Assembly (NCBI GenBank): GCA_963662465.1
Contig: OY759599.1
Coordinates: 1,920,001-1,984,000, forward strand
Reading direction: 5' to 3'
Length of the DNA: 64,000 bases
Source: Desulfatiglandales bacterium
GTDB lineage: Bacteria > Desulfobacterota > DSM-4660 > Desulfatiglandales > Desulfatiglandaceae
Shown here: positions 32,363 to 56,589 of the stretch, piece after piece
Layout of the letters: every line of letters begins with the position of its first letter
How positions within the stretch are numbered: position 1 is the first letter of the stretch
The notes under the pieces: model-generated
What the model saw: only the letters and a program-made list of their open reading frames with translations
The model's database searches: none
Told to the model about the DNA's origin: nothing
Made by a program: the position numbers and the translations under genes

Positions 32363-32949
32363 TCCGTAATCCGCAATCCGCAATCCGCAATCTGGTTGTC
32401 ATTGCCGCGTCGGCCGGAGGGATTTCCCCGTTGACCCAGGTGATCTCTCAACTGCCCAAAGGGCTGGCGGCCGCGGTGATTGTGGTGCAGCACCTCTCGG
32501 CGAAAAGGGAAACCACTCTTCCCGAAATGCTGAATCGTCAGTCAAAATTACAGGTATCCCTGGCCGAGGACGGGATGCCCCTTGAAGCCGGAAAAGTCTA
32601 TATTGCGGAGCCGGGGAAACACCTCCTGGTGGAGGACGATTTCCTGTCCGTGGTTTTTTCCGAGCGGGTCCACTATGTGCGCCCTTCCGCGGACCTGCTC
32701 TTTGTCTCCGCGGCCACATCCTTCGGTCGACGTGTGATCGGGGTTGTTCTCTCCGGGACGGGCAAGGACGGGGCCCTCGGTTGCGTCTCCATCAAGGCAA
32801 AGGGAGGGGTCACCATGGCCCAGGATGAAGCAACCGCCGGTTACTATGGTATGCCGCAGAGCGCCATTGACGCCGATGCAATCGATTACGTTTTACCACC
32901 AAACCGTATCGTTGACAAGATTGTGGAACTGGTCAATACTACCCGATGA
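32359..32949 (+). CDS. cheB: Methylesterase, catalytic domain only (no REC)
   Basis: ASAGG, VQH, RPSADLLF, LSGTGKDG, GMPQSA; GTG overlaps cheR TGA. Confidence 0.88.
   Translation: MIRNPQSAIRNLVVIAASAGGISPLTQVISQLPKGLAAAVIVVQHLSAKRETTLPEMLNRQSKLQVSLAEDGMPLEAGKVYIAEPGKHLLVEDDFLSVVFSERVHYVRPSADLLFVSAATSFGRRVIGVVLSGTGKDGALGCVSIKAKGGVTMAQDEATAGYYGMPQSAIDADAIDYVLPPNRIVDKIVELVNTTR
32362..32391 (+). repeat. ATCCGCA heptamer tandem repeat inside the cheB 5' end
   Basis: atccgta-atccgca-atccgca-atccgca-at; degenerate copies at about 32982-33000. Confidence 0.85.
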
Positions 32950-33032: not shown

Positions 33033-34547
33033 ATGAAAAAAGTAAAGGTATTACGCCATTCACGGTCGGCGGGAGATCTCCGGACCCGGCCCACGACCAC
33101 CACCGACAGGTTTAAAGAAACGGTGCCGGCCAAGGTGAGCCGGAATATCCGCCAGGGGCACCTGGTGAAGGCCATGAGGGGCATCAACCACCTTGAATGG
33201 GAGCCCTGGGAACAGACGGTTACAGAGATGCAGCGGGCCATGGACCGGCAACGTCTGAACCAGAACAATCGTTTTTATAACGCCCTGGACACGGCCCATC
33301 AGATGGTACAGGAGATACGGCGAAGGGAAGAGGAACTTCAGGCCATCAACGAGGAAATGGAGGCTTCAAACGAAGAGCTTCAGGCCACCAATGAGGAGAT
33401 GGAGGCTACCAATGAAGAGTTGCAGGCGACTTCGGAAGAGCTGCGCCAGGCGGGGGCCTATGCCGGCAGCCTGATCGAGGCGAGCCTGGATACCCTGGTG
33501 ACCATCGGTTCGGATGGAAAAATCACCGATATCAATTCCGAAACGGAAAGAATCACCGGTCGCACCAGAGAAGAACTCGTGGGCACGGACTTTTCGAATT
33601 ATTTCACGGATCCCGAGAATGCAAGGACAGGGTATCTGAAAGCCTTAAAGGAGGGGGCGGTGCGAGACTATCCTCTGGAACTCCGGCACGCCGATGAGCA
33701 TGTGACGCCTGTCCTGTACAACGCCTCGGTGTATCGGGACGAGGCCGGGAAGGTCTTAGGGGTTTTCGCGGCAGCCCGGGACGTCACGGAGCAGAAAAAA
33801 ACAGAGGAAAAGCTGAAAAACCTGCTGGATCAACTCAAAGGATCCCAGGCCCAACTCATACAGGCCGGAAAAATGGGCGCCATGGGCACCATGACCGCCG
33901 GCATAGCGCACGAACTTAACAACCCCATGATGGGGATACTCAATTTTGTTCAGTATTGTCTCAAACACACCTCACCGGACGACAGGCGATACACGGTCCT
34001 TCAAGACGCTGAGAATGAAACGAAACGCTGTGCTGAGATTGTTCAGAATCTCTTAACCTTTTCCCGCATGGAGCAGGAAGGTGAGGAAGAGTATACTAAA
34101 GTGAGCTGCAAGATGATACTGGATCGCGTTCTCAAGTTACTATCCTACCGGGTCGAGAGAGAAAAGGTATTGCTCACTGAACATACGGCTGAAGAAATCC
34201 CCCCCATCTGGGTGAAAGAAAACAATATTCAACAGGTGATCTTCAATTTGATCGGCAATGCCCTGGACAGTTTAAGAACCAGCGATAAAAAAAAGATCCA
34301 TGCGGACATACGCCCTGAAGGTAAATTTGTCCAAATAACCATTGGGGATACCGGGTGTGGTATTTCCCCTGAAAACCTCCAAAAAATCTTCGATCCCTTT
34401 TTTACCACAAAACCTGTCGGGAAAGGAACGGGGCTTGGACTTTCCATATGCCACAGCATTGTCGAGTCCCACGGCGGAAATATCAAAGGAACAAAGATAA
34501 GGGTTCTATTACCCATTGAGAAAAGTGACGGGGATAAGGGAAATTAA
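33033..34547 (+). CDS. Coiled-coil-PAS histidine kinase
   Basis: NEELQATNEE heptads, PAS, AHELNNP H-box, FDPFFTTK, GKGTGLGL. Confidence 0.9.
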   Translation: MKKVKVLRHSRSAGDLRTRPTTTTDRFKETVPAKVSRNIRQGHLVKAMRGINHLEWEPWEQTVTEMQRAMDRQRLNQNNRFYNALDTAHQMVQEIRRREEELQAINEEMEASNEELQATNEEMEATNEELQATSEELRQAGAYAGSLIEASLDTLVTIGSDGKITDINSETERITGRTREELVGTDFSNYFTDPENARTGYLKALKEGAVRDYPLELRHADEHVTPVLYNASVYRDEAGKVLGVFAAARDVTEQKKTEEKLKNLLDQLKGSQAQLIQAGKMGAMGTMTAGIAHELNNPMMGILNFVQYCLKHTSPDDRRYTVLQDAENETKRCAEIVQNLLTFSRMEQEGEEEYTKVSCKMILDRVLKLLSYRVEREKVLLTEHTAEEIPPIWVKENNIQQVIFNLIGNALDSLRTSDKKKIHADIRPEGKFVQITIGDTGCGISPENLQKIFDPFFTTKPVGKGTGLGLSICHSIVESHGGNIKGTKIRVLLPIEKSDGDKGN

Positions 34548-34548
34548 A

Positions 34549-34932
34549 ATGAGCAAGCGTATTTTGGTCATTGACGATGAATTGTCCATCAGGAAATCGT
34601 TTCTCCTGGCCCTTGAAGATACGGGGTACCTGGTGGATACCGTTGAATCGGGGGAGAAAGGGATCGAAATGGAACAAAACAACAAATATGATCTGATCTT
34701 TCTTGACCTCAAGATGCCGGGGTTAAACGGCGTGGAAACCTTGCGGGCACTGCGAAAAATAGATATGGATGTACCGATTTACATTGTAACGGCTTTTCAT
34801 AAAGAGTTTTTTGAAGGACTCAAAAAGGCGGGAGAAGACGGAATAGACTTTGAGATGGTCAAGAAACCCATCGGTGGCGCCGATATTGTTTTGGTCGCCA
34901 AAAGTGTCTTGGAAGGGGCAACAGGATATTAG
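34549..34932 (+). CDS. Single-domain response regulator
   Basis: ILVIDDE, FLDLKMPG, VTAF, KKP. Confidence 0.9.
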   Translation: MSKRILVIDDELSIRKSFLLALEDTGYLVDTVESGEKGIEMEQNNKYDLIFLDLKMPGLNGVETLRALRKIDMDVPIYIVTAFHKEFFEGLKKAGEDGIDFEMVKKPIGGADIVLVAKSVLEGATGY

Positions 34933-34976
34933 ATTGCGGACTATCGCCAATCTTCAATATTATAAAGGGAAGCGCC

Positions 34977-35273
34977 ATGAAACGAATACTACTCCGTTTA
35001 TACGTTACCGGTTCAACACCACGATCCATGAAGGCCATCGCAAACCTGAAAGCTATTTGTGAAGGGGAATTGAAGGGCAAAGTCGATCTTCAGGTGATAG
35101 ATGTTTTGGAACATCCCCAATTGGCTGAAAATGAGAAGGTCATTGCAACCCCCACCCTGATCAAGGAGATTCCCCCGCCCTTAAGGCGTATCATCGGGGA
35201 CCTGTCGGACAAGGACAGGGTCCTGCTTGGGCTTGAGATTGTTGAGGCAATCGCACTCAAGAAAACAGAATGA
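34977..35273 (+). CDS. kaiB: KaiB family protein
   Basis: LRLYVTGSTPRS, IDVLEHPQLAE, ATPTLIK..PPPLRRIIGDLSD. Confidence 0.93.
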   Translation: MKRILLRLYVTGSTPRSMKAIANLKAICEGELKGKVDLQVIDVLEHPQLAENEKVIATPTLIKEIPPPLRRIIGDLSDKDRVLLGLEIVEAIALKKTE

Positions 35274-35356
35274 AAAAGATCCTTGTCGCGCCGGCGCTGA
35301 TCAAAGACCTGCCGGCGGCCTCTCAGACAGGTCATCAATCCTTTCCGCCACCCTGA
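35270..35356 (+). pseudogene. Degenerate kaiB fragment
   Basis: KKILVAPALIKDLPA then, after a 1-nt shift, PLRQVI aligns with KaiB KVIATPTLIKEIPPPLRRII. Confidence 0.55.
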
Positions 35357-35372
35357 ATGAGCCGGAGGTTTT

Positions 35373-36866
35373 ATGAAAACAAAGGCTTTTCGCATTCTTG
35401 CCCTGGACGATGAACCGTCGATCCTCCAGTTGTACAAGCGGATACTCCCCGCGGGACAAGGCGGGAAACCGATCCCCGCCGGGGTCGCCTTTGATCTGAC
35501 CTGTTGCGCCCGCGCTGAAGAAGCCGTGGAAGTCTTTCGGGAGGCCGTGGCGGAGAACCGACCCTTTTCGGTGGTTTTTCTGGATATCCGCATGCCTGAA
35601 GGACGGGACGGGGTGTGGGCGGCCGAGGAAATCCGGAAACTGGATACTACCATGGGGATCGTCATGGTCACCGGAGATATTGACGCCGATTTTGATGATG
35701 TGGAACGTCGGGTCCCACCGCCGGACAAGCTCTTCTATTTGGCAAAGCCGTTCAATGCCAAGGAAATCCGCCGGTTTTCCCTGGCCCTCTGTGCCCGATG
35801 GGAGGCGGAAAGGGAACTGCTCCGGATCCATGACCATCTGGAAACCATGGTGGCGGAGAGAACCGCTGCCCTGACGGACGCCAACGAACATCTCAAGGCC
35901 GAAGCGGTAAACCGCCTGGCGGCGGAAAAGACCCTTCGGCTCAGCCAGGAAAACTTCCGTAACATGATTTTGGAAAACGCGGACGGCATCATCATCTTTG
36001 ACCCGGAACAGATGGTTCGGTTCGTCAACCCAGCGGCGGAAGGGATCTTCCGGAAAAAGGCGGAAAAATTCATCGGGACCTCCCTGGGGTTCCCCCTGGT
36101 GGACGGAGACAAAACGGAACTGGATATCGTCCAACCTGGAGGCACTTTGATGGTGGTGGAAATGCGGGTGACGGAAACCCGCTGGGAGGGGGAAAAGGCC
36201 TATCTCGCTTCCCTCCGGGACATCTCGGAGCACAGTCGCACCAAGGAAGACCTGAGAGAAAGCGTCGAAAGTCTTGAAAACACCATGACTCGTACGGTGG
36301 AGGCCATGGCCAGGACCGTTGAAAGAAGAGACCCCTACACGGCGGGCCATCAGTACAGGGTGGCGACACTGTCGCGGGCCATCGGCCGGGAGATGGGATT
36401 TTCCGACCAGGAGATCCTGGGCCTCTACATGGCGGCTCTGGTTCACGACATCGGCAAAATATGTATTCCCGCGGAGATCCTTTGCAGACCCGGACGCTTG
36501 AGCAAACCGGAAATGAACATGATCCAATACCATTCCCAAGACGGATACGACATTCTGAAAGACATCCCCTTTCCCTGGCCCATCGCCCGCATTGTCCTGC
36601 AGCATCATGAACGCATGGACGGCTCCGGCTACCCAAAGGGTCTTTCCGGAGATGAAATTATGATGGAGGCTCGGATCCTGGCCGTGGCGGATGTGGTGGA
36701 AGCCATGGCCTCCCACCGCCCCTACCGGGAGGCCCGGGGGCTCCCGCTCGCCCTGGAGGAAATCTCAAAGAACAGCGGAAAATTCTATGACCGGCAGGTG
36801 GTGAACACCTGCGTAAGATTGTTCGAGGAACAGCAATTCACCCTGCCCAACGGGCTGGATTCATAA
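35373..36866 (+). CDS. REC-PAS-HD-GYP cyclic-dinucleotide phosphodiesterase
   Basis: REC FLDIRMP, PAS, RDPYTAGH, HDIGK, HHERMDGSGYP, ADVVEAM.SHRPYR. Confidence 0.92.
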   Translation: MKTKAFRILALDDEPSILQLYKRILPAGQGGKPIPAGVAFDLTCCARAEEAVEVFREAVAENRPFSVVFLDIRMPEGRDGVWAAEEIRKLDTTMGIVMVTGDIDADFDDVERRVPPPDKLFYLAKPFNAKEIRRFSLALCARWEAERELLRIHDHLETMVAERTAALTDANEHLKAEAVNRLAAEKTLRLSQENFRNMILENADGIIIFDPEQMVRFVNPAAEGIFRKKAEKFIGTSLGFPLVDGDKTELDIVQPGGTLMVVEMRVTETRWEGEKAYLASLRDISEHSRTKEDLRESVESLENTMTRTVEAMARTVERRDPYTAGHQYRVATLSRAIGREMGFSDQEILGLYMAALVHDIGKICIPAEILCRPGRLSKPEMNMIQYHSQDGYDILKDIPFPWPIARIVLQHHERMDGSGYPKGLSGDEIMMEARILAVADVVEAMASHRPYREARGLPLALEEISKNSGKFYDRQVVNTCVRLFEEQQFTLPNGLDS

Positions 36867-36875
36867 AGAGTCTCC

Positions 36876-37555
36876 ATGACCCCGCTCCATCTTCGTCACC
36901 CGATTCATACATTAAGCGGCCGGCAGTTGCTTTCCTCGGGCGCTGCACTCACAAAAGAGACCTTAGATCAGCTCATTTTGTCAAATAAAACAATGCCCGA
37001 ACCATCCTTTTCAGTGATGGATCATGGCTCGACCAAAAGGGACCTCCTTGATTTTATTCATCAGCCGCCCTATAACGCCATATTCTCCGACCCGGAACGA
37101 ATCCGGGATTGATGACCCGCATGGCATCTGTTTGTGAGGAACGGGATATGCTTGAGCATCATGCCGCAGCCGGGTATATTCTGCTTTGTTATCACCTAAA
37201 GGACAAAAACAACCTGGTGGCCCGAGTGGCGCTGAACCATCATGAACGAAGAAACGGCGCCGGATACCCAGAAGGGATAAAGCAAACAGACCGACTGATT
37301 GAAATTGTGGCCGTCTGTGACATCTATGACGCCCTCGTTTCCCGAAGACCCTATCGGGCCGCACCTTATGACAACCGCACAGCACTGGAGGAAATTACCC
37401 TGTTGGCGGAAAAAGGTGAAATATCCTGGGAGGCACTCAACGCATTGATCTCCCATAACCGCAGAAAAAAACCCCACTACAGCCGAGTTATCGCGTTCAT
37501 GGAAAAAAGGGGGGTTCCACCACCAAAGAATGTTTATGGTGTCACGGTAGAATAA
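36876..37555 (+). pseudogene. Frameshifted, internally deleted HD-GYP-type gene
   Basis: Frames join near 37110 if one T is added; HHERRNGAGYP and DIYDAL..RPYR present, HDIGK segment absent. Confidence 0.7.
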
Positions 37556-37831
37556 GGTATCTATTATTTCCTCGCCTCCCGTGGCCCCCAGTCACCTCAC
37601 CAGGTGACAACTATACTGATACAGGAGGCCAAGCAATAAACTTAAAAAGCTTTATGGGAAAATAATGGGCAATGCCGACATGTATGACGAGATGCTACTG
37701 TCTGCGATTTCGCCCTGGGAGTGTTGAGGAAGGATAGGTTGCAAAACTTTAAAAGAACGTCCCGGTTCCCATGGGGGGGGTTGCCATTCAAAATGAGTTA
37801 TCGTCCAGATTGTATGGTAACGGGGAGTGGT

Positions 37832-38014
37832 ATGGCGATAAAGGGGGTGTTAAGAGAGGAATTGGATAATTCCGTCAGAATGCAGAAAAGATATGAGGAA
37901 GAACTCGAAAGGCTTCCTGTTGGCAGTCTTGTAAGAAAGAAAATCAAGGGGCATTACGTGGACAGGAGTCAAGATGACCCTTTCCATTTCTGCCCCCAGA
38001 CCCCTGACTCCTGA
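37832..38014 (+). pseudogene. Truncated small gene
   Basis: MAIKGVLREELDNS..LPVGSLVRKKIKGHY with GGAG RBS, broken at a caggagtca/tgactcctg inverted repeat. Confidence 0.45.
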
Positions 38015-38057
38015 TCCCCAACCCCCACCTTCTGTCCCCAAACGGGGAACAAATTCC

Positions 38058-38085
38058 TTGACAACCGTACCATAAACAGTACAAT
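38058..38085 (+). promoter_or_regulatory. Sigma70 promoter with GTAC-N8-GTAC operator for the TA pair; transcript probably leaderless
   Basis: TTGACA-16 nt-TACAAT, GTG start 7 nt after the -10 box. Confidence 0.6.
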
Positions 38086-38091
38086 CCCTCT

Positions 38092-38439
38092 GTGGATAAG
38101 AGAAAGATCATAAGCGCCCATTTTTATAAATCCTCTTCGGGAAGAATGCCAGTACGGGAATGGCTCCTGTCATTATCAAAAGAGGACAGAATCGAGATCG
38201 GCGGAGATATCGCCAATGTAGAATACCATTGGCCCGTAGGCCCGCCAAAATGTAAACCCATCGGCGATGGGATGTTCGAAATTCGCTCCAGAATTTCGAA
38301 CGACCGAATCGCCCGGGTGCTTTTCTTTACAGAATCCGATCAGTTATATCTACTTCATGGATTCATCAAGAAAACCACCAAAATCCCCAAACGGGACGTC
38401 GATCTGGCGCGGAACCGAAAGAAGGTAATGGAGGGATAA
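38092..38439 (+). CDS. RelE/HigB-like toxin (Gp49-like)
   Basis: FY....GRMPVREWL, WPVGPP, MFEIRS, ARVLF, LLHGFIKKT. Confidence 0.88.
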   Translation: MDKRKIISAHFYKSSSGRMPVREWLLSLSKEDRIEIGGDIANVEYHWPVGPPKCKPIGDGMFEIRSRISNDRIARVLFFTESDQLYLLHGFIKKTTKIPKRDVDLARNRKKVMEG

Positions 38440-38441
38440 AA

Positions 38442-38735
38442 ATGATCAACAAAAAGCATATCGGACAAGGTTTTGAGGATTTTCTCCAGGAAGAAGGGAT
38501 CTACGAACAAGTCCAGTTGAATGCCTTGAAAAAGACCCTTGCGCATCAGATCAAGGCCATGATGGAGGAACGAGGCATACCCAAAACAGAGATGGCAAGT
38601 CGTATGCACACGAGCCGATCCTCTCTGGACCGTCTTCTAAATGAGAATTTCTGCAACGTGACCATCGGCACGATCAGTAAGGCAGCAACTGTTCTGGGAA
38701 AACGAATCGAACTCTCCCTCGTGGACAACGGATAA
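38442..38735 (+). CDS. XRE/HigA-like antitoxin
   Basis: HIGQGFEDFL, KTEMASRMHTSRSSLDRLL HTH. Confidence 0.88.
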   Translation: MINKKHIGQGFEDFLQEEGIYEQVQLNALKKTLAHQIKAMMEERGIPKTEMASRMHTSRSSLDRLLNENFCNVTIGTISKAATVLGKRIELSLVDNG

Positions 38736-39108
38736 GCATGATACGAAGGATGCGGCCAATGTAGCGGATTTGGTTTCCCAAGGCAAATATCTGTTTTACG
38801 AATATCCGATCATGCCGCTTCGCGAACTGCGAAATCTGCTGTCTTTTAAACGTCGGCTGAAAAAACAGGAACATGGGACCAGAGTACGAATTCGGAATCA
38901 TTTGCTTGCTCAGTATTTTCCTGAATTGGATACTTATTTTTCCCGGATATCAGGCTGTAGCCTTAGCGTTGTGAAATGGTGTCTGGAACCTTCTTTGATT
39001 GCAGGACTGGAGTACGAAGAGTTCCTTAGGTTGGTCGCACCCGGTAAACGTACGGTAAGACAACTGGAGTACGTGAAGCAGATTTGGGAAAAGGCATTTG
39101 AATCCATC
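38731..39108 (+). mobile_element. Internal fragment of an IS110-family transposase
   Basis: DKHDTKDAANVADLV (KxDxxDA), LRELRNLL, LAQYFPEL; no start, ends or C-terminal domain. Confidence 0.7.
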
Positions 39109-39377
39109 CTGAGAAGGCATTGTCCCTGTGCGAAGAACGCACCGACCACATCCACCTGCTCATCACGGATGTGGTGATGCCGGAGATGGATGGCGGTCAG
39201 TTAACGGAACGGGTTAAGAAACGGATGCCGGGGGTCAAAGTTCTCTATATGTCGGGATATACAGAGGACGTCATCGCGCAAAAGGGTGTGCTTTATAAAG
39301 GGGTCCGGTTCCTTCAAAAACCCTTCTCCCGGGAAGCATTGCTCAGGAAGGTTCGTGAGGTATTGGATGAGAAATGA
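39106..39377 (+). pseudogene. C-terminal receiver-domain fragment of a hybrid kinase
   Basis: HLLITDVVMPEMDG, VLYMSGYT, FLQKPF, KVREVLD; N-terminal DD strand missing. Confidence 0.75.
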
Positions 39378-39402
39378 ACCGCCGTTCCGGGATAATGTAT
39401 TC

Positions 39403-39606
39403 GTAACCGTTCACAGGGTGCAGGGTGTAGTTGTCAGGGGGCCGAATGAGATTGGAAGATTTTATATGTATGGAAAAGAGGCCCACGATTGAGTCCAATA
39501 TCCACAAACAATCAGATCAAACATGCCGATTGTCTCAATTTGATAGATGTCAAGTGCTTGAGAAAGAATTAGCGCTGATTTTTCTGCACCCTGACAACTG
39601 CACCCT
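39403..39606. repeat. Family C element with inverted AGGGTGC/GTTGTCA arms
   Basis: gtaaccgttcacagggtgcagggtgtagttgtcagggg (39403-39440) vs ctgcaccctgacaactgcaccct (39584-39606). Confidence 0.7.
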
Positions 39607-39679
39607 CTTAATCCCGGAAGACCTCTACCCGGTCCCTTTTGATGTATATTTTAGACATACATTAACCAGTGATGCAAAT

Positions 39680-42118
39680 TCAAGGGGTTTTTCCATTGCA
39701 CGGTAGAACAGGGCATGGCGCCGATTGAACGTTGGATTTTAAAGATTGAAAAACCACCACCCGGTTGCGCCCCGCTTCCTTGGCCCGGTACAGGGCTTCA
39801 TCAGCCTGGTCGATGATCTTTCGAGCGGAACCTTTTTCGCCCGGCACGTCCTGACTGACCCCCAGACTGATGGTGAACCGAATGGGGCCGGTCCTCCATG
39901 GGACCCGGGCCCCTTCCACCATCCGACGCAACCGTTCGCAGGCGGCGCGTCCCCCCTCCAGCGACGTCTCCGGCAGAATCACCGCAAACTCCTCCCCCCC
40001 GTATCGGCAGGCCACATCGGTCTGCCGGGACCATTGTCTGATAATCCTTCCCATATCCGCCAGAACCGCATCGCCGGCCGAGTGTCCCAGCGTATCATTG
40101 ATCCGCTTAAAAAAATCCAGGTCGATCATGGATAACGCCAGATCCGTACCATGCCGCTCGGCCCGCGCCCTTTCACTCTCAAGGGCTTCCATGAAATACC
40201 GGCGATTGAACAGACCGGTCAGTTCATCTCGAGTGGCCATTTCCGAGATCTTTCTTCGGGCCATGTGGATTTCTCTTTTGAGGCTCGCCTTTTCCATCAC
40301 ATTTCGAATGCAGCAGGAAACGGTTTCCGAATCAAAACGCGTTTTGGTCAGGTAATCATCAGCCCCTTCCTGAATCAGACGGGCGGCGATCATTTCATCT
40401 CCCTGCCCGGTTAACAGCACCACCGGAATTTCATAACCGGCTTCTTTCATGGCCCGCAAAAAATCAAAGCCATTCCCGTCCGGCAACTGATAATCCAGTA
40501 GCACCAGCGACGGCGATTTCTCCTGAAGACAGCGAAGCCCTTGTTCAATATTTCCGGCATGACGCAATTCAATGCCACCCACACGCTTTAAAACCGATTG
40601 AATGGTCTCAAAATCCTCAAGGGAATCCTCAATGGAAAGAACATGAATTTTCTGATCAATATTCACGATCCTGCCGCTGGACCCGTAGGGCTTGGTTTCA
40701 TACTGTCGAATGTTTTGAATTTTTTTGATGGTATCGGCAATTCTTCTGCCGGCCTCTTCAATTTCTTTCATGCAAAGGGCCAGTTCTTTCGGATCATCCT
40801 CTGCGTCCTTCATCAAATCAATATTTCCCAACAGTATGGACAGGGGCTGGTTCAGTTCGTGGGCCGTGGCCCCCGACATTTGAAGCAGAACCTTGAGACG
40901 TTCCTCTTCAATCAGTGCTTCCTGTTGTTCCAGAATTTTCCGGTTGGCGCTTTTGAGCTTCTCTTCCATCCGCTTTCGTGCCGTAATATCCCGAATGGAG
41001 GCCAGACAGACCTTCTTTCCCTCCCACTCAATTTCAACGCTTCGCATCTCCCCAACCTTCAGGGTTCCATCCCGACTCAGAATATCCAGCTCCGAGGTTT
41101 CCCCGGCAAGCAGTGGAAAGCCAAAGGATGAACCGATGAATGATCCCGAATCCCGACCGAACATTTTTTCAGCCGCCGGATTGATGATCCGCACAATCCC
41201 TTCATCATCCGCAAGAATCAAAGCGTCACTAAACTGATTAATGATTCCCCAAAGCCTTTCTTCACCGGCCTTGAGGTTTTCGGATTCACTTTTACGCCGG
41301 GTAACATCGGTTACGATAAAAGTGACATTGCCCTTGTCGGCGGCATGTGGAAGGGTTTCCATGGCAAGGAAACGATCGTTCAGGATAATGGGATCATCAT
41401 AGGGGATAGCAACGGAGGCCTGCGCGTTCATTTCCATCATGAGTCGCATAATGCGCAACCGATCTTTTTCGTTAAAAAGAGCCGGAAACGGGGCGCCCAG
41501 CAATTCCGAATCGTTCTTCCTGAAGAACGAGCAGGCCGCGTCATTCACGTAAAGGATTCGACCCTCCGGGCTCAGTTCCACAATGCCCTGGCTCATGTTA
41601 TCCAGGATCAAGCGGGTCTGTTTTTTTGAACAGAGCAACTCAGCCGTCATTTTCCGCGGGAAAACATGCGCCGTCCCGATAATCTCCCCTGAACGACATC
41701 GGTCGCTGACACCTTCAGGATCACGCAAAACTTCCTGAATGTAATCGACCATTTTCGAAACCGGGCCTTTGGCAATCAATGCATCGGCGCCCAATTCGTC
41801 CATGTCGGGTCGTTCCTCCACGAGCATTCCTGAAAAAACGGCGATATAAACGGACTGCAGTTCTTTTTTCCCTCGGATGGCCCGGCAAAGGTTTTTACCG
41901 TCCATATCGGGAAGAACCATGTCCAAAAATATAATATGGGGACGGTGAAAATGCAGCACATCCAAAGCCGAGAGACCATCCTGAACCGTCAGGACTTCAT
42001 ACCCGGCATCGGAAAGGGTCCGCTCCATGAACTCACGAATGACGGGATCATCATCCACCACCAGGACCTTTCTGAGGGCATGGCTCATTTCCCACGCTTT
42101 CTCTTTCACGGCGTTCAT
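39680..42118 (-). CDS. Diguanylate cyclase (REC-PAS-PAS-HisKA-like-REC-GGDEF)
   Basis: DELTGLFNRR, DLDFFKRIND, RQTD I-site, RYGGEEF; internal AHELNQP. Confidence 0.92.
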   Translation of the reverse strand: MNAVKEKAWEMSHALRKVLVVDDDPVIREFMERTLSDAGYEVLTVQDGLSALDVLHFHRPHIIFLDMVLPDMDGKNLCRAIRGKKELQSVYIAVFSGMLVEERPDMDELGADALIAKGPVSKMVDYIQEVLRDPEGVSDRCRSGEIIGTAHVFPRKMTAELLCSKKQTRLILDNMSQGIVELSPEGRILYVNDAACSFFRKNDSELLGAPFPALFNEKDRLRIMRLMMEMNAQASVAIPYDDPIILNDRFLAMETLPHAADKGNVTFIVTDVTRRKSESENLKAGEERLWGIINQFSDALILADDEGIVRIINPAAEKMFGRDSGSFIGSSFGFPLLAGETSELDILSRDGTLKVGEMRSVEIEWEGKKVCLASIRDITARKRMEEKLKSANRKILEQQEALIEEERLKVLLQMSGATAHELNQPLSILLGNIDLMKDAEDDPKELALCMKEIEEAGRRIADTIKKIQNIRQYETKPYGSSGRIVNIDQKIHVLSIEDSLEDFETIQSVLKRVGGIELRHAGNIEQGLRCLQEKSPSLVLLDYQLPDGNGFDFLRAMKEAGYEIPVVLLTGQGDEMIAARLIQEGADDYLTKTRFDSETVSCCIRNVMEKASLKREIHMARRKISEMATRDELTGLFNRRYFMEALESERARAERHGTDLALSMIDLDFFKRINDTLGHSAGDAVLADMGRIIRQWSRQTDVACRYGGEEFAVILPETSLEGGRAACERLRRMVEGARVPWRTGPIRFTISLGVSQDVPGEKGSARKIIDQADEALYRAKEAGRNRVVVFQSLKSNVQSAPCPVLPCNGKTP

Positions 42119-42399
42119 GAATTTTTACCCCTCAAGTTCAGCAAATCAAATACCCTTTTGCCATCGGAAAGATCGCCGATAAGGCGCCGCATGGGTGGGG
42201 GGGTCAGCAAAATCAGGGTAGGCGTCGCCATGACGTTGGCCTCCTCAGCCGATTGGGGATCTTTGAGTACATCAATAATCTCCAGAGTCCCCTGCCCCTT
42301 CAAACGCTCGTCAAAAATCGTCGTCACCCCATCGATGGCCTTTTTGGATCTCAGCGTATCCCCAGCCACGTATAATTTCATGAATACGTTGTTTTCCAT
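42115..42399 (-). CDS. kaiB: KaiB family protein (divergent)
   Basis: KLYVAG, IDVLKDPQSAE, ATPTL..PPPMRRLIGDLSD; ATGA overlap with the DGC gene. Confidence 0.9.
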   Translation of the reverse strand: MENNVFMKLYVAGDTLRSKKAIDGVTTIFDERLKGQGTLEIIDVLKDPQSAEEANVMATPTLILLTPPPMRRLIGDLSDGKRVFDLLNLRGKNS

Positions 42400-42517
42400 G
42401 AATCCTCATCTTTCATCTTTGGAAACAATCTTTTGCCTCGAAAAACAGCCCTTTCCGGAACCCCATTAAAGCATAAGGCGCATACGGTGTAAACATATCA
42501 CTTCATAAAAATATCTT

Positions 42518-44812
42518 CTACGTGAGTTTATACTGAGCAACAATCTCCTTGATTTCTTCCGCCAGCTCGTTGAGGCCGGCAGCGGCTTTTTCGGACTGCT
42601 GGGTGCCGGCCTCAGTCTGGGCGGCGGCCTGGTCGATGCTTTCCATGGCGGAAGCCACCTGGTCCATACCTGCCAGTTGCTGGCGCGTACTGGCGGAAAT
42701 TTGCTGGGCCGCCGCCGCTACCTTCTCAATACGGGTCGTGATGGTTTCAATGGCTTCCCCGGTGGTGCGGGCCAATTGCTGCCCCGCCTCAGCTCGCCGG
42801 GTCCCCTCTTCGGTCACCATCACAGCCGTGTTGGCAGCTTTCTGAATCTCGCCTAAAATCTCTCTCACCTTGGCCGTGGCCTGACGGGACTTCTCCGCCA
42901 AACCGCGGACCTCGCCCGCCACCACGGCAAACCCTTTGCCTGCTTCACCGGCCCGGGCCGCTTCGATGGCCGCATTCAAGGCCAGCAAGTTTGATTGATC
43001 GGCAATGTCATTGACCGTGGCGTTAATATCTCCGATCTGCAGGGTCTGCTCGCTCAGGGTCAGAATGGTTTCGGCAATATGAGCTACCTGCGCTTTAATA
43101 TTGTCCATGCTCACCACGGTTTCCGCCACGGCCTGAAGCCCTTGTTTCGAAGCGGCAGTGGATTCCTGGGCCATTTGCGACACCATTTGCACTCGCTCAT
43201 GGGATTGTTCCGCTGTCTGTCGCACTTCCTGCACCGTGGTGGAGGTCTCATTGACAGCTGCGGCCTGCTGGCTGGTGGTGGCGGCCTGTTGGCTGGTGGT
43301 GGCCAGGATCTCAGTGGCGGCCGACGAGATATTGGCGGTGGCTTCCCACATTCGGGTGGCCAGACTGCGAAGACCGCCGGTCATGACGTTCAGATTCTTT
43401 GCCAGAATGCTTAAATCCCCGTCGCCGACCACGGCAACCTGGCCGGTCAAATCGCCCTGACCCACTTTTTCCACAAAAGCCACATAGGCACTGACTGTAT
43501 CCTCCAGATCGGCTTTCACCTGTTGCTCCTGATCGGCTTTCCGCGCCAGATCTTCCATGGATATTTTCAAGTTTTGAACCATGCCGTTAAAGGCGTCCGC
43601 CAGAATACCCACTTCATCCCGGGTTTTTACACGGGCCTCCACATCCAGATTTCCGGCTTTCACGGCCCGGGCCGTTTCGGTGATTTGGCGAATCGGTCGT
43701 GAAAGGGTGGCGGCAATCCAAAAAACGCACAGGGCTACGATCAGGGCTACGCCGCCTCCGATCATCCAGGTCATGTTCCGCAAATTTCGAGCAAGGGCAA
43801 AGGCCTTGGCTTCAGCTACCTCCGCAATAACAGCCCATTGGATGCCCTCTATGTTCACGGGCGCATAGGAAGAAAGCACCTTTACACCGCGATAATCCGT
43901 AATGAGACGGGTTCCGGTTTCCCCTGCAAGGGCTTTTCGGGAAGCAACCGTGTCCACGCCGTTTTTTGATACAGCGCTGGACAGAGATGCCTTAACCGAG
44001 TGGGTTTCAGGGCTCAAACGCGAATCCGACCGCATTCGCTTGTCCGATCCCACCAGATAAATTTCCAGACCTTCTTTGGCTTGGTCTCCATCGCTTACAA
44101 TGCTGTTCAGGAGAGCGAAAGGAAGCTGATAGACCAGAGCGCCGGTGCGGACCGGGCCGTTAAAAACAGGGGCGCCGGCGAACATGACCGGCTCGCCGTC
44201 CATCAAACCCACATCCACGAAACAGACATCCCCCTCCTTGGCGGATTTCAACCGGCGGCAGAGCGCTCCCAAATTGGTTTCCTTTAAAGGCCCGGATAGG
44301 AGGTTAACGCCGAAAAGCCTGCCCTTGTTACTGCTGTAAATCACATCACCCTCATTGTTCAACATGAGGATGTCGGCAATGCCCAGGAGTTGCTTATGTT
44401 CGGGGAGGGATGCATGCTGCTCCTGGTGAACCGTGCTGTAAGCACTGCCGTCCATGGCGTCCAGAAGCTTCGGCTTATCCAGGTAGAGGGAACGAATATT
44501 TTCAGACCCCAGAAATCGAAATCCATTGGCCAAGTCTCCCATATCATAAACGATGGCGGGTTTCTTGGCCATTTCCAGGAGATCGATTTTCCAACGGTTC
44601 CAAACCCGCAAAATTCGGTTTTTTTTAAGGGCCGTATCATCAGCCAATTGAATAAAGGCTTCCTGGCGCAGCGCTTTTTGCGCTTCCCCATAAAGCATCA
44701 CCCCCAGGGCCGCCAGCGGCGTCAGCGCAAACAGTAAAAACCAGAAGAGCAATTTACCTTGAATGCTTCGAAAAAAGCGCAGAGATGCGGCAGGTTTTTC
44801 CTGTTTTATCAT
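42518..44812 (-). CDS. Methyl-accepting chemotaxis protein (Cache-HAMP-MCP)
   Basis: Two TM segments, [34 protein letters not shown]. Confidence 0.95.
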
Positions 44813-44841
44813 AGTCCTTCCTCCCAAACGATGAGATGCTT

Positions 44842-46037
44842 TTAATAGGAGGGGCGCCATCTGCCATCCTTGACCTGCATAACGTGAATGGTCTGAATGC
44901 CGTCCCCTTTTTTGTCAAAGGCCATCATGCCGGCCGTGCCCCGCCACATTTTCATCTGGGCCAGGCCGTCTCGAATTTTTTGCGGTTTTCCTGCAACTGT
45001 TCAGGATCATTGTTGATGCCTTTGCGCTTCATGATATTCACCAAAAATAGAAGGATATCATGCACCACCACGCTATACTGTTCCGGTCGGCATCCCATAT
45101 CCGGATACTTTGCCTCGCATCGTTTTGTAAATTCCTTTTTGAATGCAACCACCTTCGGCCTTGGATCATCCGGATTAAAAACGCTGCCGGTCCAGAATCC
45201 CTCCGCATCTTCACCGGCGATTTCAATAATCGCTTGCGACGACATGGCATTGGCGCCTAGAATGGGCTGTTTTATTCCCTGTTTTCGAATCGCCTTGAGA
45301 ATCAGCCCCCCTTCTTTGGGGAGGGCCGCAATGCAGATGCCGTCCGGATTGTATTGTTTGAGCTGAAGTGCCTGTTGCGTAAAATCCGTGTCTCCGGTTG
45401 AAAAACAGGTGGGGTTGTTCCGGTTGAGAATTTGAACATTTAATTCCCTGAAAATTTCAGGCCAGACTGTTTTACCCACAACGGCGGTGTAGACGTTTTC
45501 CGAATCATAGATCAGGGCCACACTTTTAATTTGATGCGCCTTAACCCAGGCCTTCGCCATAACATTTTCAATATTTTCGGCGCTGACAGTCATTCGAAAG
45601 GCATAGGGGAATTTTTTGAGGTCGCTCAGTCCAGGCTTGGCCGATGCAGTGGCAATGATAACCACCTTTTCCCGGTTGGTTGCCGGTCGAAGGGGTTCAA
45701 AGCAATGGCTGAACAATGGGCCGATGACCGCCAGCACGTGATCATCTTCCGCCAGTTTACGGTAGTTTTCCAGGGTCTGGGCGGCATCGCTTCCCGTATC
45801 ATAGAGAATTATCTCCACCGGCGTTCCATTGATCCCGCCCCGGCGGTTGATTTTTTCCACGGCCATTTCTATCCCCACAGCCTCTTTCTTTCCCCATCCC
45901 GGATTGAGACCGGTCATGGGGGCCAGCAATCCAACCTTCAAGGAACCCGAATCCGCCCATAAGAGAGGCAATCCCGCTCCAAAGATGCAAATTGCCAGAA
46001 GGCCTTCAAAAATTATTTTTTTCCATACCCATTTCAT
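44842..46037 (-). CDS. Branched-chain-amino-acid-type periplasmic binding protein with a 1-nt frameshift near the 3' end
   Basis: Signal peptide, [19 protein letters not shown]; adding one A to the A6 run (44976-44981) gives [28 protein letters not shown] to TAA 44842. Confidence 0.8.
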
Positions 46038-46434
46038 TTTCCCGCCCCCCCTCAATCATCATGGGGCCTTCCAAAGCCCCTTTACACACCATGAGAATCG
46101 TATCCCCGTCCACCGGCTTGTTGAGCAGCTCGAATTCCGTTCCTTTTTGTGCCATAATTGACAGTTCCTCGAAAAATTCACCATAAAACGCCGTCACAAT
46201 GTATACCAGCATCTCTTGATCCAGTTTCCGGATTTCACTTAAAGTTTCCACCCCCGACATACCGGGCATTTTCAAATCCAGAAAGACCAGATCGTATGAT
46301 TCCGACGCGATCATTTCAAGGCCTTTTTTGCCGGACGAAGCCGTATCCACAAGGTAGCCGCTGTCCTCCAGCGCCAACTCAAAAGATCTGCGTATTGCAG
46401 CCTCATCGTCGATCACAATGATTCGTTTTGCCAT
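46006..46434 (-). CDS. Single-domain response regulator
   Basis: IIVIDDE, FLDLKMPG, VTAF; paralog of 34549-34932. Confidence 0.9.
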   Translation of the reverse strand: MAKRIIVIDDEAAIRRSFELALEDSGYLVDTASSGKKGLEMIASESYDLVFLDLKMPGMSGVETLSEIRKLDQEMLVYIVTAFYGEFFEELSIMAQKGTEFELLNKPVDGDTILMVCKGALEGPMMIEGGRENEMGMEKNNF

Positions 46435-46476
46435 TATTGCCTCCACCCTCTTGAAAAACCAAATCCGACAAACTTA

Positions 46477-48309
46477 TTATACGGGCAGCCGCACTGTAAA
46501 AACGCTGCCCTTTCCCGGTTCACTGCGACATTCAATGTGCCCCCCGCGCTTTTCCACAATACCGCGGCTCACGGACAATCCCAGGCCGGTTCCTTTTCCA
46601 ACGGGCTTGGTCGTGTAAAAAGGGTCAAATATCTTCTCTTTAATGTCTTTGGGGATGCCGCATCCCGTGTCTGCCACGCGAACCTTGACATAGCCGTTCG
46701 GGTCGTGCGCAATGTAAATATCGATTTTTCTGGTATCCTTTTCTCTCACCGCATCCAGCGCATTACTGATGAGATTCAGAAAAATCTGTTGAATATTGCT
46801 CGCATTCACTGAAATTTCAGGGCAATTTTCCGCCGTTTTCATGCTAAACGAAACGCCTTCCTTTACAAGACGGTAGGAAAGCAATTTGTGCACCCGTTCA
46901 ATGATATTTTCACAGGAAATTACCTCACGGCTTTCCTCGCTTTGCGCTTCTATGCGGGAGAAGGTTTGGAGATTTTTGACAATCTCAATGCACCGGCGAG
47001 TCTCCCGTTCCATATCGTCCAGAACCGAATACACTTTGTTTTTCCCGTCCACATGTTTTTTGCAGTATTGGGCAAAATTGAGCATGCCCATCATGGGATT
47101 GTTGAGTTCATGGGCAATGCCGGCGGTCAGCGTTCCCAGGGCGCCCAGTTTTTCCGCTTGAATCAACTGGGCCTGGGACTCCCGTAAAGCCGTGGTGCGC
47201 TCCTCCACCCGCTTTTCCAGATTGTCGTGAGCGGCTTTCAGGTCCCTTTCCATCTGTTTACGCACGGAAATATCCCGAATCACTCCCACGGTTCCCATGA
47301 ATTCCTTCTGCTTCGCCTCCGGATTGACCTCCCACATGCCGGAGCTGTTCACCTCCATAATCACATATTCCCGGGTCAGGGGTTCGATGAAGCCCGGCTC
47401 AACGCTTGCCGCATTCAGCGGCACCAGACGAATCTCCAGTCCTTCGGTTTTCCGCGCCCCGGTCCGCTGTTCGTTAAACAGTTTCGGGGCCCCTTTATCG
47501 CTGGTTTTCCTGCCCTTCATTTTTTCCAGAACCGTTTCCCGGTCCACCTGGGCCGCATCCGACGGTAAAATGATTTGGCTGAAATGCCGACCGATCAAGT
47601 CCTCGGGCTTATAGCCCAACCGCTTGATGGCTTCGTTGACAAACGTAAATTTACCTTGAGAATCGATGCGATATACAATATCCGGAATGGTTTTCACGAG
47701 GCTTCGAAATCGATTTTCCGAAAGCCGTAATTCATAGACTCTCTCCGCTAATTTTTCATTGAGATCCCGGAGTTCTTCCTGAGCCTTCAACAGCTCCGTA
47801 TTGCGTAAAACCGCGTTTTCATAGGTGGAAAGGAGCAGATTCATGATCCGTGTGCTGGTGGAGAGTACTTTTCGTCGTTTGCCCCCTAAAACAATTTCCA
47901 GTTCCTCCCACTTCTCATTCCGGTTCAGCGCAGGGGGGTGATTGAGGATGTCTTCCACACGGGACAACAGGGAGGTTTCATCAAAGGGCTTCGTCAAATA
48001 GTAATCCGCTTTGGCTTCCAGTCCCTTAAGAATGTCCTTCGAGTCCGAAAGGGTGGTCAGCAGAATGATGGGAATATTTGCCAGTTCAGGATGATCCTTG
48101 ATTTCCCGACACATTTCGTAACCCGTCATTTTCGGCATGACCACATCGCTGATAATCAAATGGGGGTGCGTTTTCGTCGCCGCTTCCAGGCCCTGCCGTC
48201 CATCCCGGGCCACATGCACCTCATAGCCAACCTGTTCCAGCAAAAGCTTGAGATACATGGCCTGCGTGGGACTGTCCTCCACCACCAGGATACGATGATT
48301 ATTCGCCAT
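46477..48309 (-). CDS. REC-PAS histidine kinase
   Basis: REC ISDVVMP, PAS, AHELNNP, FDPFYTTK, GKGTGLGL. Confidence 0.92.
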   Translation of the reverse strand: MANNHRILVVEDSPTQAMYLKLLLEQVGYEVHVARDGRQGLEAATKTHPHLIISDVVMPKMTGYEMCREIKDHPELANIPIILLTTLSDSKDILKGLEAKADYYLTKPFDETSLLSRVEDILNHPPALNRNEKWEELEIVLGGKRRKVLSTSTRIMNLLLSTYENAVLRNTELLKAQEELRDLNEKLAERVYELRLSENRFRSLVKTIPDIVYRIDSQGKFTFVNEAIKRLGYKPEDLIGRHFSQIILPSDAAQVDRETVLEKMKGRKTSDKGAPKLFNEQRTGARKTEGLEIRLVPLNAASVEPGFIEPLTREYVIMEVNSSGMWEVNPEAKQKEFMGTVGVIRDISVRKQMERDLKAAHDNLEKRVEERTTALRESQAQLIQAEKLGALGTLTAGIAHELNNPMMGMLNFAQYCKKHVDGKNKVYSVLDDMERETRRCIEIVKNLQTFSRIEAQSEESREVISCENIIERVHKLLSYRLVKEGVSFSMKTAENCPEISVNASNIQQIFLNLISNALDAVREKDTRKIDIYIAHDPNGYVKVRVADTGCGIPKDIKEKIFDPFYTTKPVGKGTGLGLSVSRGIVEKRGGHIECRSEPGKGSVFTVRLPV

Positions 48310-48733
48310 GGCGTTCCCCCCGCAAGGTCGCCCTGGGCTGCACGTTAACCAGCATCTTGACCTTCGCCAGGAACTCGGTCTCCCATTTGGGCGGTTCAAA
48401 ACCAAAACCCTTCGGCTTGGCCATCACATCCAGCGCACCGGCCCGCATAGCCTCAAAGGCTATATTCATTTCCTGAAAGTTGCTTTTGGCGGTTATCACA
48501 ATAATGGGGATGGGATTTTCGGCCATGATCCGTCGTGTGGCCTCCAGGCCGTCCATAACCGGCATGGTCACATCCATGGTAATCAGGTCAGGTTTTAAGC
48601 CACGGGCCATGGCAACTGCCTCCCCGCCATTTTCCGCTTCACCCACCACCTCAATTTCCGGATCAGCGTTCAGAAGTTCCTTGAGTATCATTCGAATGGT
48701 GGCAGAATCATCCACAATCAATATGCGTATCAT
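48299..48733 (-). CDS. Stand-alone receiver of CheB-REC type
   Basis: IVDDSATIR, PDLITMDVTMPVMDGLEATRRIMAENPIPI. Confidence 0.85.
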   Translation of the reverse strand: MIRILIVDDSATIRMILKELLNADPEIEVVGEAENGGEAVAMARGLKPDLITMDVTMPVMDGLEATRRIMAENPIPIIVITAKSNFQEMNIAFEAMRAGALDVMAKPKGFGFEPPKWETEFLAKVKMLVNVQPRATLRGERHGE

Positions 48734-52123: not shown

Positions 52124-52148
52124 ATCTTTCCCCAGTGCAATTGAAATC

Positions 52149-54413: not shown

Positions 54414-54417
54414 CTTG

Positions 54418-55005
54418 CTAAGCCGTCTCTTCCCGAACGATGATTCCCGGATCGGAAATAAGCTTTTGCATATCCAGAATCATGAGCATGTCGGCGGTCA
54501 CGCCTTTGATATACCCCTGGGCGCCGGCTGAAACAGCCCCGGTCGGAGGCTGAACATCACTCAGGGAAATTTTTTCAAGTTTCGGACGACCATCCGCCAC
54601 AATGCAGAATTCCATCAACTTTCGATCCGGTGCGGTTTCACCTACAATTAAAAGCACATGGGCCTTTTCCATGTCAATATCAACGGCAATTCCCAGATAG
54701 GCGGCAATATTCATCATGGAATAGATTCTGCCTCGAAGATTGACCGCCCCGACAATAAAATCAGGCGTACAGGGGACCAGGGACCACATCCCCCGCTTCA
54801 GGGGTTGAATCTCCTGAATGTGTTCGATGTTCAGACCGAAGCGCTCCTCGCCCAATGAAAAGCTCAGAAGCCGCGGAACGTCCTGAGCCTCTGACTCTCC
54901 AGGCCCTGTTTTGGCCAATTCACACGCCCGCTGCTTCAGGATTTTTTGTAACGCTTCATCCAGGGATGTTTCCGTCATCATCTGCAAACCCTTTCTTGTA
55001 AACAT
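54418..55005 (-). CDS. cheW: CheW
   Basis: [18 protein letters not shown]. Confidence 0.9.
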
Positions 55006-55049
55006 TTACGATTCAGCGCTTTTTCAACCGTAAGCAGTTGCCCATTTTT

Positions 55050-56582: not shown

Positions 56583-56589
56583 AACTTTG

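Follow-up and report, generated by a model that had tools for sequence, protein, structure and literature searches.

KaiB beside phosphorylatable receivers in a Desulfatiglandales genome: two copies of a two-component signalling cassette built from clock parts

Introduction

All functions of KaiB that we found described depend on KaiC. What does KaiB do when it is encoded between a kinase and a cyclic di-GMP (c-di-GMP) enzyme, away from any kaiC? This question is raised by a stretch of 64,000 nucleotides from a Desulfatiglandales bacterium (GenBank assembly GCA_963662465.1, contig OY759599.1, positions 1,920,001 to 1,984,000), referred to here as the window. A preliminary description of it had pointed to two clusters, each with a histidine kinase (HK), a receiver, a kaiB and a PAS-bearing c-di-GMP enzyme. 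The present study followed these up in the whole genome (G000), in its relatives and in wider genome and metagenome collections. The labels REC* (the shared receiver subfamily) and PAS* (the shared short PAS subfamily) were coined in this analysis, and G and L numbers are our handles for genomes and loci.

The cassette is a two-component signalling variant built from clock parts, and the window holds two copies of it, each made of a kinase, REC*, KaiB and a PAS*-bearing enzyme. With a probability that we put at about 55%, the phosphorylated receiver controls KaiB, which would dock on the PAS* domain of the enzyme. The two clusters are separately evolved copies and not a demonstrated paired switch.

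Results and discussion

The two clusters of the window

Cluster 1 (+ strand) runs in the order CheR, CheB, coiled-coil-PAS kinase HK1, REC1, kaiB1 and REC-PAS*-HD-GYP. Cluster 2 (- strand) runs in the order Wsp-like Che operon, HK2, REC2, periplasmic binding protein, methyl-accepting chemotaxis protein (MCP), kaiB2 and REC-PAS-PAS*-HisKA-REC-GGDEF. Their genes are as follows.

31553..32362, + strand: CheR methyltransferase, input side of cluster 1 (PF01739, PF03705)
32323..32949, + strand: CheB methylesterase without a receiver (PF01339)
33033..34547, + strand: HK1, a MAC2-like kinase, coiled coil (EELQA.NEE repeats)-PAS-HisKA-HATPase (Pfam, repeats)
34549..34932, + strand: REC1, a 127-aa single-domain REC* receiver with phosphorylation residues intact (domain match, alignment)
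34977..35273, + strand: kaiB1, residues of the kaiC-operon type, ground-state fold in the model (PF07689, model)
35373..36866, + strand: phosphodiesterase-type REC-PAS*-HD-GYP protein, PAS* at 35949-36242 (Pfam, motifs)
39680..42118, - strand: diguanylate cyclase REC-PAS-PAS*-HisKA-REC-GGDEF, PAS* at 40970-41260 (Pfam, motifs)
42115..42399, - strand: kaiB2, of a cyclase-paired KaiB clade, fold-switched (thioredoxin-like) in the model (PF07689, tree, model)
42518..44860, - strand: dCache-HAMP-MCP chemoreceptor between REC2 and kaiB2 (Pfam)
44952..46055, - strand: periplasmic binding protein, Peripla_BP_6 (Pfam)
46006..46446, - strand: REC2, the second REC* receiver (domain match, alignment)
46477..48309, - strand: HK2, REC-PAS-HisKA-HATPase, paralogous to HK1 in the kinase core, its open frame reaching 48405 (ORF, Pfam)
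48299..57126, - strand: Wsp-like Che operon of CheW, CheR-TPR, CheW, MCP, Hpt-CheA-CheW-REC, REC-CheB and REC (Pfam)

Much of what the preliminary description had said of these parts was borne out. The kinase motif GT(M/L)TAGIAHELNNPMMG.LNF.QYC.KH is present in HK1 and HK2, both of which have HisKA and HATPase_c by Pfam, and their cores are 56% identical. The receiver motif KRI.VIDDE..IR.SF.LALED.GYLVDT is present in REC1 and REC2 (58% identical). Each cluster has one kaiB, and both are real, scoring above the PF07689 cut-off (98 and 78.5 bits) and matching KaiB chains of the PDB. A c-di-GMP enzyme with a related PAS domain (47% identical) directly follows each kaiB, 99 nt behind kaiB1 and, in cluster 2, coupled in translation by a stop/start overlap (ATGA). 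The outputs are an HD-GYP protein and a GGDEF protein with catalytic motifs intact in both: HDIGK and HHERMDGSGYP in the former, GGEEF and the RxxD I-site in the latter, whose HisKA region is a His-bearing DHp without an ATPase domain. The 64-kb window was rightly said to have no kaiC; KaiC-strength matches occur genome-wide only at 4.60 and 4.62 Mb. The claim of one gene order in both clusters did not survive, because the binding protein (44952-46055) and the MCP (42518-44860) interrupt REC2-kaiB2.

CheR and CheB ahead of cluster 1, and a Wsp-like Che operon ahead of cluster 2, were also seen as described. An ACF (Wsp-like) Che system has a CheA with a receiver, CheR-TPR, two CheW, REC-CheB and an MCP, and the Che operon of cluster 2 has each of these. 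The input of cluster 1 looks like a MAC2 kinase by its sequence, with separate CheR and CheB beside a coiled-coil kinase as in the MAC2 definition (10.1101/2022.05.07.491037). Unlike MAC2 and ACF, the clusters of the window feed a REC*/KaiB stage before the enzyme, a stage that those classes are not described as having. A CheR/CheB-modified coiled-coil kinase would feed into a c-di-GMP phosphodiesterase, and a Wsp-like pathway into a cyclase.

REC* and kaiB are linked across bacteria

A metagenome scan with the REC* alignment confirmed at least 460 stretches, and the best 80 loci, picked on REC* alone, were examined. In 63 of the 80 the distance from REC* to kaiB is at most 600 bp; any kaiB is present in 64 and a related kinase in 55. 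Among the 16 loci without kaiB, eight end within 500 bp and eight have sequence and no kaiB in it. After clustering at 90%, kaiB adjoins REC* in 46 of 54 clusters and kaiC is present in four; 14 of the 54 hold kaiB and no kaiC with at least 3 kb on both sides. The preliminary description had named, as evidence against itself, orthologous loci that consistently hold kaiC; kaiC was seen in 4 of the 80. The REC*-kaiB tandem is duplicated as a unit in L194, L230, L245 and L248. The receiver residues D-D, D, T and K are invariant in all 48 unfused REC* and in at least 104 of 105 fused ones. Covariation between REC* and KaiB columns was computed on 153 rows (about 75 effective; top z 6.2, five shuffles giving 3.9-4.7) and not used, since the top pairs are scattered and seem to reflect the division between methanotroph fusions and other sequences.

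The same association exists within this genome. When 248 receiver-bearing open reading frames (ORFs) were scored with the REC* profile, four reached 178-211 bits and the next 82. Each of the four adjoins a close paralogue of the kinase, and all four have a kaiB at most 9 kb away; of the 248 receiver-bearing ORFs, 23 have one within 10 kb. On 43 PAS-bearing ORFs the PAS* profile gave five copies at 88-146 bits and the next at 26, and four of the five are at most 1.6 kb from a kaiB. There are seven kaiB matches, one of them broken by a stop.

Fusions of REC* with KaiB and genomes without a detected kaiC

Longer REC* homologues gave 259 matches. Among the best 120, 105 are REC*-KaiB fusions, nearly all of about 220-250 aa with KaiB at the C-terminus, where a response regulator has its effector. 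Their source names are Methylomonas, Methylobacter, Comamonadaceae, Planctomycetes, Dehalococcoidia and Deltaproteobacteria. A plasmid search with the fusion protein gave generic receivers only.

Among 131 genomes of the methanotroph family of G598 (L103, labelled Methylococcaceae), 26 carry the fusion. The order there is kinase, REC*-KaiB and a PAS* enzyme (GGDEF-EAL or hybrid kinase), which is the order of cluster 1 with two genes fused; PAS* is in the next gene in 23 of the 26. Nine of the 26 have a kaiC, at least 36 kb away or on another contig. In the other 17 no kaiC was found, only a weak match. Five of these, with main contigs of 4.4-5.5 Mb (G615, G679, G631, G713 and G695), have a single KaiC-family match even with the single-domain profile included; it was identified as RadA in G615, as was the lone match in G024 and G016. 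Among ten genomes with unfused REC*, kaiC is present in four and was not found in six (G016, G024, G498, G501, G594 and G595). The kinase upstream of the methanotroph-family fusions is mostly a Ser/Thr kinase-AAA-GAF-histidine kinase of 1,700 aa (L295:10106-15226, L294-L301).

The neighbourhood survey suggested earlier thus showed the order kinase-REC-kaiB-PAS-enzyme to be conserved from the family of this DNA to methanotrophs, genomes almost wholly on one contig and with no kaiC found being among them. As the cassette exists in many bacteria without a detectable KaiC, KaiB is here likely a phosphorylation-controlled adaptor and not a clock part, and the earlier idea of KaiB as an adaptor outside a KaiC operon gains support from such loci and genomes.

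The fusions place KaiB in the effector position of a response regulator. In addition, the pseudo-receiver of CikA is reported to bind fold-switched KaiB (PDB 5JYV; PMC6378743), so that a receiver fold is able to dock on KaiB. For these reasons we commit to a relay and infer phosphotransfer from HK to REC*, a REC*-KaiB contact, a KaiB-PAS* contact and the sign of the effect. The adjacent kinase would phosphorylate REC*, phosphorylated REC* would likely control KaiB, and KaiB would bind the short PAS* of the downstream enzyme and thereby set its activity. The two-component switch would take the role that KaiC has in the clock, deciding when switched KaiB is available. CikA differs in that its domain is non-phosphorylatable, sits within a kinase and needs the KaiB-KaiC complex, whereas REC* is free or fused to KaiB with its phosphorylation residues intact.

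PAS* as the output domain

A scan of GTDB genomes with PAS* confirmed 197 stretches, of which 77 loci, picked on PAS* alone, were kept, four of them from close relatives. A kaiB lies within 7 kb of PAS* in 40 of the 77, and 37 have none. Loci with PAS* and kaiC span Chloroflexota, Gemmatimonadota, Bacteroidota, Planctomycetota, Pseudomonadota and others.

The best match to PAS* among solved structures, FixL, is not a close one (E 4e-4); compared with the FixL PAS, the helical region of PAS* lacks about 22 residues. This shortening suggests a protein-binding rather than a cofactor-binding domain. PAS* stays with kaiB once kaiC is gone, and this points to KaiB as its probable partner, in line with KidA. 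According to the KidA paper, the PAS domains of this S. elongatus cyclase bind fold-switched KaiB, and PAS genes beside kai homologues in other bacteria are remarked upon (PMC9478674). KidA and the enzymes of the window are alike as c-di-GMP enzymes with PAS domains, next to or bound by KaiB. KidA differs in that it tunes a KaiC clock and has four PAS domains and GGDEF-EAL. PF24820 was tried as a model of PAS* and had no match over its cut-off in the genome. A library-wide PAS* search (452 proteins, E up to 1e-30) was not used for counts, as it mixes multi-PAS proteins and gives no context.

The distant kaiC genes and the descent of cluster 2

The DNA of cluster 2 is 68-76% identical to that of a cluster at 4.63 Mb that closes with a gene for a receiver plus helical domain, followed by kaiB, kaiC and a PAS* gene that is truncated. 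In G010, the closest relative, the kaiB2-cyclase pair lies inside the kaiA3-like/kaiB/kaiC cluster, and G000 is without it there, a clean 2.7-kb block having been lost. Because of this DNA identity and the arrangement in G010, cluster 2 is, judged from sequence, an old copy, lacking kaiC, of the chemosensory cluster whose final genes are kaiA3-like/kaiB/kaiC at 4.62 Mb. The REC*-containing copies in the window have neither a KaiA3-like gene nor kaiC.

The order of the 4.62-Mb genes matches that of the published kaiA3-kaiB3-kaiC3 operon (PMC11372060). The KaiA-like C-terminal domain gave only weak Pfam hints (KaiA in 1 of 18 members, E 0.028; RsbU_N in 2 of 18, E 0.052) and the gene had no PDB match, so the KaiA3 label is based on synteny. 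The likeness to the KaiA3-KaiB3-KaiC3 system lies in the receiver plus helical domain, kaiB and kaiC of this cluster and in the PAS* genes that follow such operons in many phyla; the difference is that the window is without a KaiA3-like gene and kaiC and that REC* lacks a KaiA-like domain at its C-terminus. The PAS* gene after kaiC (L018:11274-11648; G000:C1:4,623,274-4,623,648) is cut to 124 aa, a PAS* start with a receiver-like tail. G010 has a similar short form, so the own output gene of the 4.62-Mb Kai operon has decayed.

This genome therefore allows another reading, in which KaiB1, and perhaps KaiB2, load onto KaiC in trans and link extra kinase inputs and c-di-GMP outputs to the 4.62-Mb module. 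Such use of KaiC is possible for this organism given the distant KaiC genes and cluster 2 as a duplicate of the kai cluster. In its favour are the two kaiC themselves, the 68-76% identity and the G010 pair inside the kai cluster, the truncation of the PAS* gene (as intact outputs would then lie elsewhere), the kaiC-operon residues kept by KaiB1, and three loci (L170, L174 and L216) in which REC*-kaiB lies directly beside kaiA3-like/kaiB/kaiC. Against it, 17 of 26 fusion genomes and 6 of 10 with unfused REC* keep the cassette and gave no kaiC when searched, and the kaiB2-cyclase pair is intact in G007 and G016 with no kaiC found in either (95% and 93% complete, in hundreds of contigs). We regard loading onto a distant KaiC as possible with odds well short of even; it would apply chiefly to KaiB1 and is compatible with a KaiC-free cassette elsewhere. 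The preliminary description had allowed for either a KaiC-independent KaiB or a distant KaiC, and each alternative has found some ground, two distant kaiC being present here and the cassette occurring elsewhere without a kaiC found. In L170 and L174 a KaiA3-like domain is fused to PAS* and not to a receiver.

The same history could mean that kaiB is simply left over from duplicated kai clusters minus kaiC, sitting idle among ordinary two-component parts. Cluster 2 as a duplicate without kaiA3-like/kaiB/kaiC would fit this, and so would the loss of blocks as units between close relatives (the 2.7-kb kaiB2-cyclase block is gone from the kai cluster of this genome), the one broken kaiB among seven and the internally deleted version of cluster 1 in G004. 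An idle KaiB is nevertheless very improbable. Cassette KaiBs vary as much as those of kaiC operons (mean identity across phyla 43% and 44%), yet the TP motif is retained in them. Fusions and tandem REC*-kaiB duplications are recurrent, and four relatives have intact genes of the kaiB2 clade that are coupled to the cyclase. The apparent REC-KaiB fusion of G004 (L050) was not counted as a fusion, being the product of an internal deletion. The broken kaiB (L020:9238-9500; G000:C1:3,111,280-3,111,510) lies directly 3' of a REC-multi-PAS hybrid kinase with no kaiC near.

Two different KaiB proteins

KaiB residues are numbered here as in T. elongatus. At the fold-switch positions K58/G89/D91, KaiB1 has K/G/E, and KaiB2 has N/L/N with an Asp at the I88 position. 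KaiB2 and six other members with Asp or Asn at 88 and Leu or Ile at 89 form a single clade (SH-aLRT 99). K57, G88 and D90 of Synechococcus KaiB are linked to fold switching (PMC5520375), and engineered switched KaiBs among the PDB matches are altered at the same positions (I88A; G89A with D91R). For Rhodobacter KaiB, PMC10808063 reports that V83D turns the last strand into a helix in models; by alignment offsets V83 would correspond to position 88.

AlphaFold2 models were built on 7-sequence alignments. KaiB2 was modelled in the switched fold (pLDDT 74; TM 0.81 to 5JYT and 0.43-0.47 to ground-state chains). For KaiB1 the model (pLDDT 69) has the ground-state fold, with TM 0.78-0.84 to chains in that state and about 0.5 to switched ones. 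In these models KaiB1 would rest in the ground state and could still switch, and KaiB2 would be stabilised in the switched fold, serving its coupled cyclase as a permanent subunit or adaptor.

A quick tree of 102 KaiB rows was also made. Length and 88% dereplication reduced 53 cassette pairs to 47, two more rows were lost to duplicate names, and the window KaiB1 and its G010 orthologue were added. In it 35 of 47 cassette KaiBs group together (SH-aLRT 91). Asn27 is present in 41 of 47 kaiC-operon KaiBs, in 9 of 47 unfused and in 3 of 46 fused cassette KaiBs; for Arg74 the counts are 38 of 47, 19 of 47 and 11 of 46.

A more elaborate form of the relay would use the slow fold switch of KaiB, without the ATPase, as a delay or memory element. 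Phosphorylated REC* would trap or release switched KaiB that gates the PAS* enzyme, and a slow KaiB1 on the phosphodiesterase with a fast, fold-locked KaiB2 on the cyclase would give a timed pulse of c-di-GMP. We consider this speculative and rather unlikely.

The clusters as a pair

The preliminary description had taken the two adjoining clusters for one push-pull circuit with KaiB as timer, in which a shared or cross-talking kinase and receiver signal switches the cyclase and the phosphodiesterase in opposite directions. Cross-talk is possible given the 56-58% identity of the kinase cores and receivers. An HD-GYP gene, kaiB2 and the cyclase are in one operon in G010 and G016, G597 has the cyclase and two REC-PAS*-HD-GYP genes behind kaiC, and the two KaiBs have opposite model folds. 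The conservation of the layout does not bear this out. In G010 the same region is rearranged, with kaiB1 upstream of CheR and no HD-GYP at the locus, and in G004 the two cassettes are on different contigs, cluster 1 being there in an internally deleted version. Of the relatives, these two have both kaiB types, and neither shows the twin layout. In addition, two further REC* copies of the genome, outside the window, sit in clusters with other outputs. The two clusters are also set apart by about 2.8 kb of debris.

36876..37555, + strand: HD-domain gene in two pieces (stop/restart TGATG near 37109), part of the debris (ORFs, Pfam)
38092..38735, + strand: Gp49 gene and helix-turn-helix (HTH) gene, a toxin-antitoxin-like pair outside the cassette (PF05973, PF13744)
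38741..39377, + strand: repeat-derived fragment and then an orphan receiver C-terminus (98% copy at genome position 5,363,336)

With this split gene, toxin-antitoxin-like pair, repeat fragment and orphan receiver end between its halves, a single push-pull circuit appears improbable.

Distribution in relatives and points against the relay

Including G000, kaiB was found in 10 of 41 relatives. Intact kaiB2-cyclase pairs are present in G004, G007, G016 and, in two copies, G010; in G006 the pair is interrupted. A single-protein query (10 candidates scored per genome) found no REC* in the 400 genomes of the phylum sample, and among 208 other genomes of the order seven have it, which makes its distribution here a patchy one. 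In the phylum sample 47 genomes have kaiB, and 43 of these have a kaiC match. A kaiB without kaiC is therefore exceptional in the phylum, and 4 of 47 is a bound on how often kaiC is missed in drafts.

Several observations weigh against control of KaiB by a phosphorylated receiver and docking on PAS*. This genome has two double-domain kaiC, at 4.60 and 4.62 Mb, 2.6 Mb from the clusters of the window in a genome-wide search. KaiB1 keeps N27, C32, K58, R74, R75 and G89 like kaiC-operon KaiBs; it falls outside the 35-row cassette group in the quick tree, and its nearest non-cassette rows are kaiC-operon KaiBs. The fold models are moderate (pLDDT 74 and 69, on alignments of seven sequences). Of the four kaiC-less kaiB genomes among the 47 of the phylum sample, two have kaiB at a contig end, and the six unfused-REC* genomes without a found kaiC are drafts, 83-96% complete where this is given. 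The link of REC* to kaiB is also not universal. One REC* clade without kaiB (seven loci and a cut one) is flanked by dnaJ and a gene for a type II/IV secretion-type ATPase. In G007 the kaiB2-cyclase pair is retained and no REC* was found, and in the window REC2 and kaiB2 are 3.6 kb apart.

The remaining points concern PAS*. Three of the 26 fusions have no PAS* in the next gene, and among 40 metagenome cassette loci with 1.2 kb after kaiB, PAS* is next in 15 and somewhere in the locus in 23. In the phylum sample, 20 of 29 PAS* genomes had no kaiB detected (12-13 candidates scored per genome). Of the 40 kaiB-linked PAS* loci, 34 have a full kaiC as well, in most cases immediately ahead of the PAS* gene, and six have kaiB alone. 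Since PAS* usually follows kaiC, KaiC could be its partner.

Compared with the KaiABC clock and the KaiBC timers of Synechococcus, Thermosynechococcus and Rhodobacter (PDB 2QKE, 5JWO, 8FWJ), the KaiB domains here are true ones, and KaiB1 keeps K58 and G89; the cassette is unlike them in being without kaiC, the nearest one 2.6 Mb away, and in having a phosphorylatable receiver as its constant partner. A literature search on KaiB with cyclases, PAS, kinases, receivers and Methylomonas, which covered few subscription papers and excluded supplements, found no description of the cassette, and for a KaiC-independent KaiB it found only an unrelated use of the term.

Neighbouring genes and other observations

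One further gene lies upstream of cluster 1.

28532..31516, + strand: hybrid kinase dCache-PAS-HisKA-HATPase-REC-REC, which directly precedes kaiB1 in G010 (Pfam)

The Gp49 protein of the toxin-antitoxin-like pair is presumably of the RelE/HigB type. A sigma-70-like promoter match of 11/12 is present at 38058, 5' of this pair, and scans for promoters and terminators were otherwise close to background. A family search with the repeat fragment at 38741 gave no match.

The 3' end of HK1 has a 9-residue gap in comparison with its orthologues. A contig of run X1 has 21 extra bases behind 34483, the window indels lying within 34483-34544, and a one-base difference at 44975 in the binding-protein gene. 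By this comparison the HK1 end and the shortened end of the binding protein in the window are probably consensus errors, and decay of HK1 was set aside. X1 is maybe the source sample, and it then counts as a different assembly and not as independent support for the two corrections. The contigs obtained from RNA runs X5 and X6 were all short, with 90-99% identity, and do not demonstrate expression.

A fourth cluster without kaiC in this genome, L019 (G000:C1:3,057,850-3,068,500), holds an HTH-receiver gene, a divergent kaiB, a PAS*-GAF hybrid kinase, a large kinase, CheR, CheB, a kinase and REC*. The HTH-receiver we take to be excisionase-like. Similar clusters occur in G004 and G010. The REC* clade without kaiB comprises L203, L213, L214, L218, L220, L236 and L243, and its receiver is fused to the secretion-type ATPase in P0282, P0285, P0287 and P0289. 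In L222:5881-8163 the gene after the REC*-kaiB cassette is cellulose-synthase-like and includes a PilZ domain, which makes it a possible target of c-di-GMP. In G024 (L054:6427-14403) the CheR-CheB-kinase-REC*-kaiB cassette adjoins a gas vesicle cluster (ArsA-type ATPase, GvpA-type, GvpL/F).

Conclusion

What the window contributes is the unfused form, present in four paralogous clusters of a single closed genome, a link by descent to kaiA3-like/kaiB/kaiC, the link to PAS* and a pair of KaiBs predicted in opposite folds. A cassette in which KaiB is fused to a phosphorylatable receiver and KaiC has been dropped would give KaiB a second job as the effector of a response regulator, and would reveal a use of the KaiB fold switch outside clocks. 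PAS* is a candidate output socket of Kai modules with and without KaiC in many phyla, and this bears on Kai signalling in non-cyanobacterial organisms. By source names, the fused form is present in cultured methanotrophs, so the relay is testable with three small proteins.

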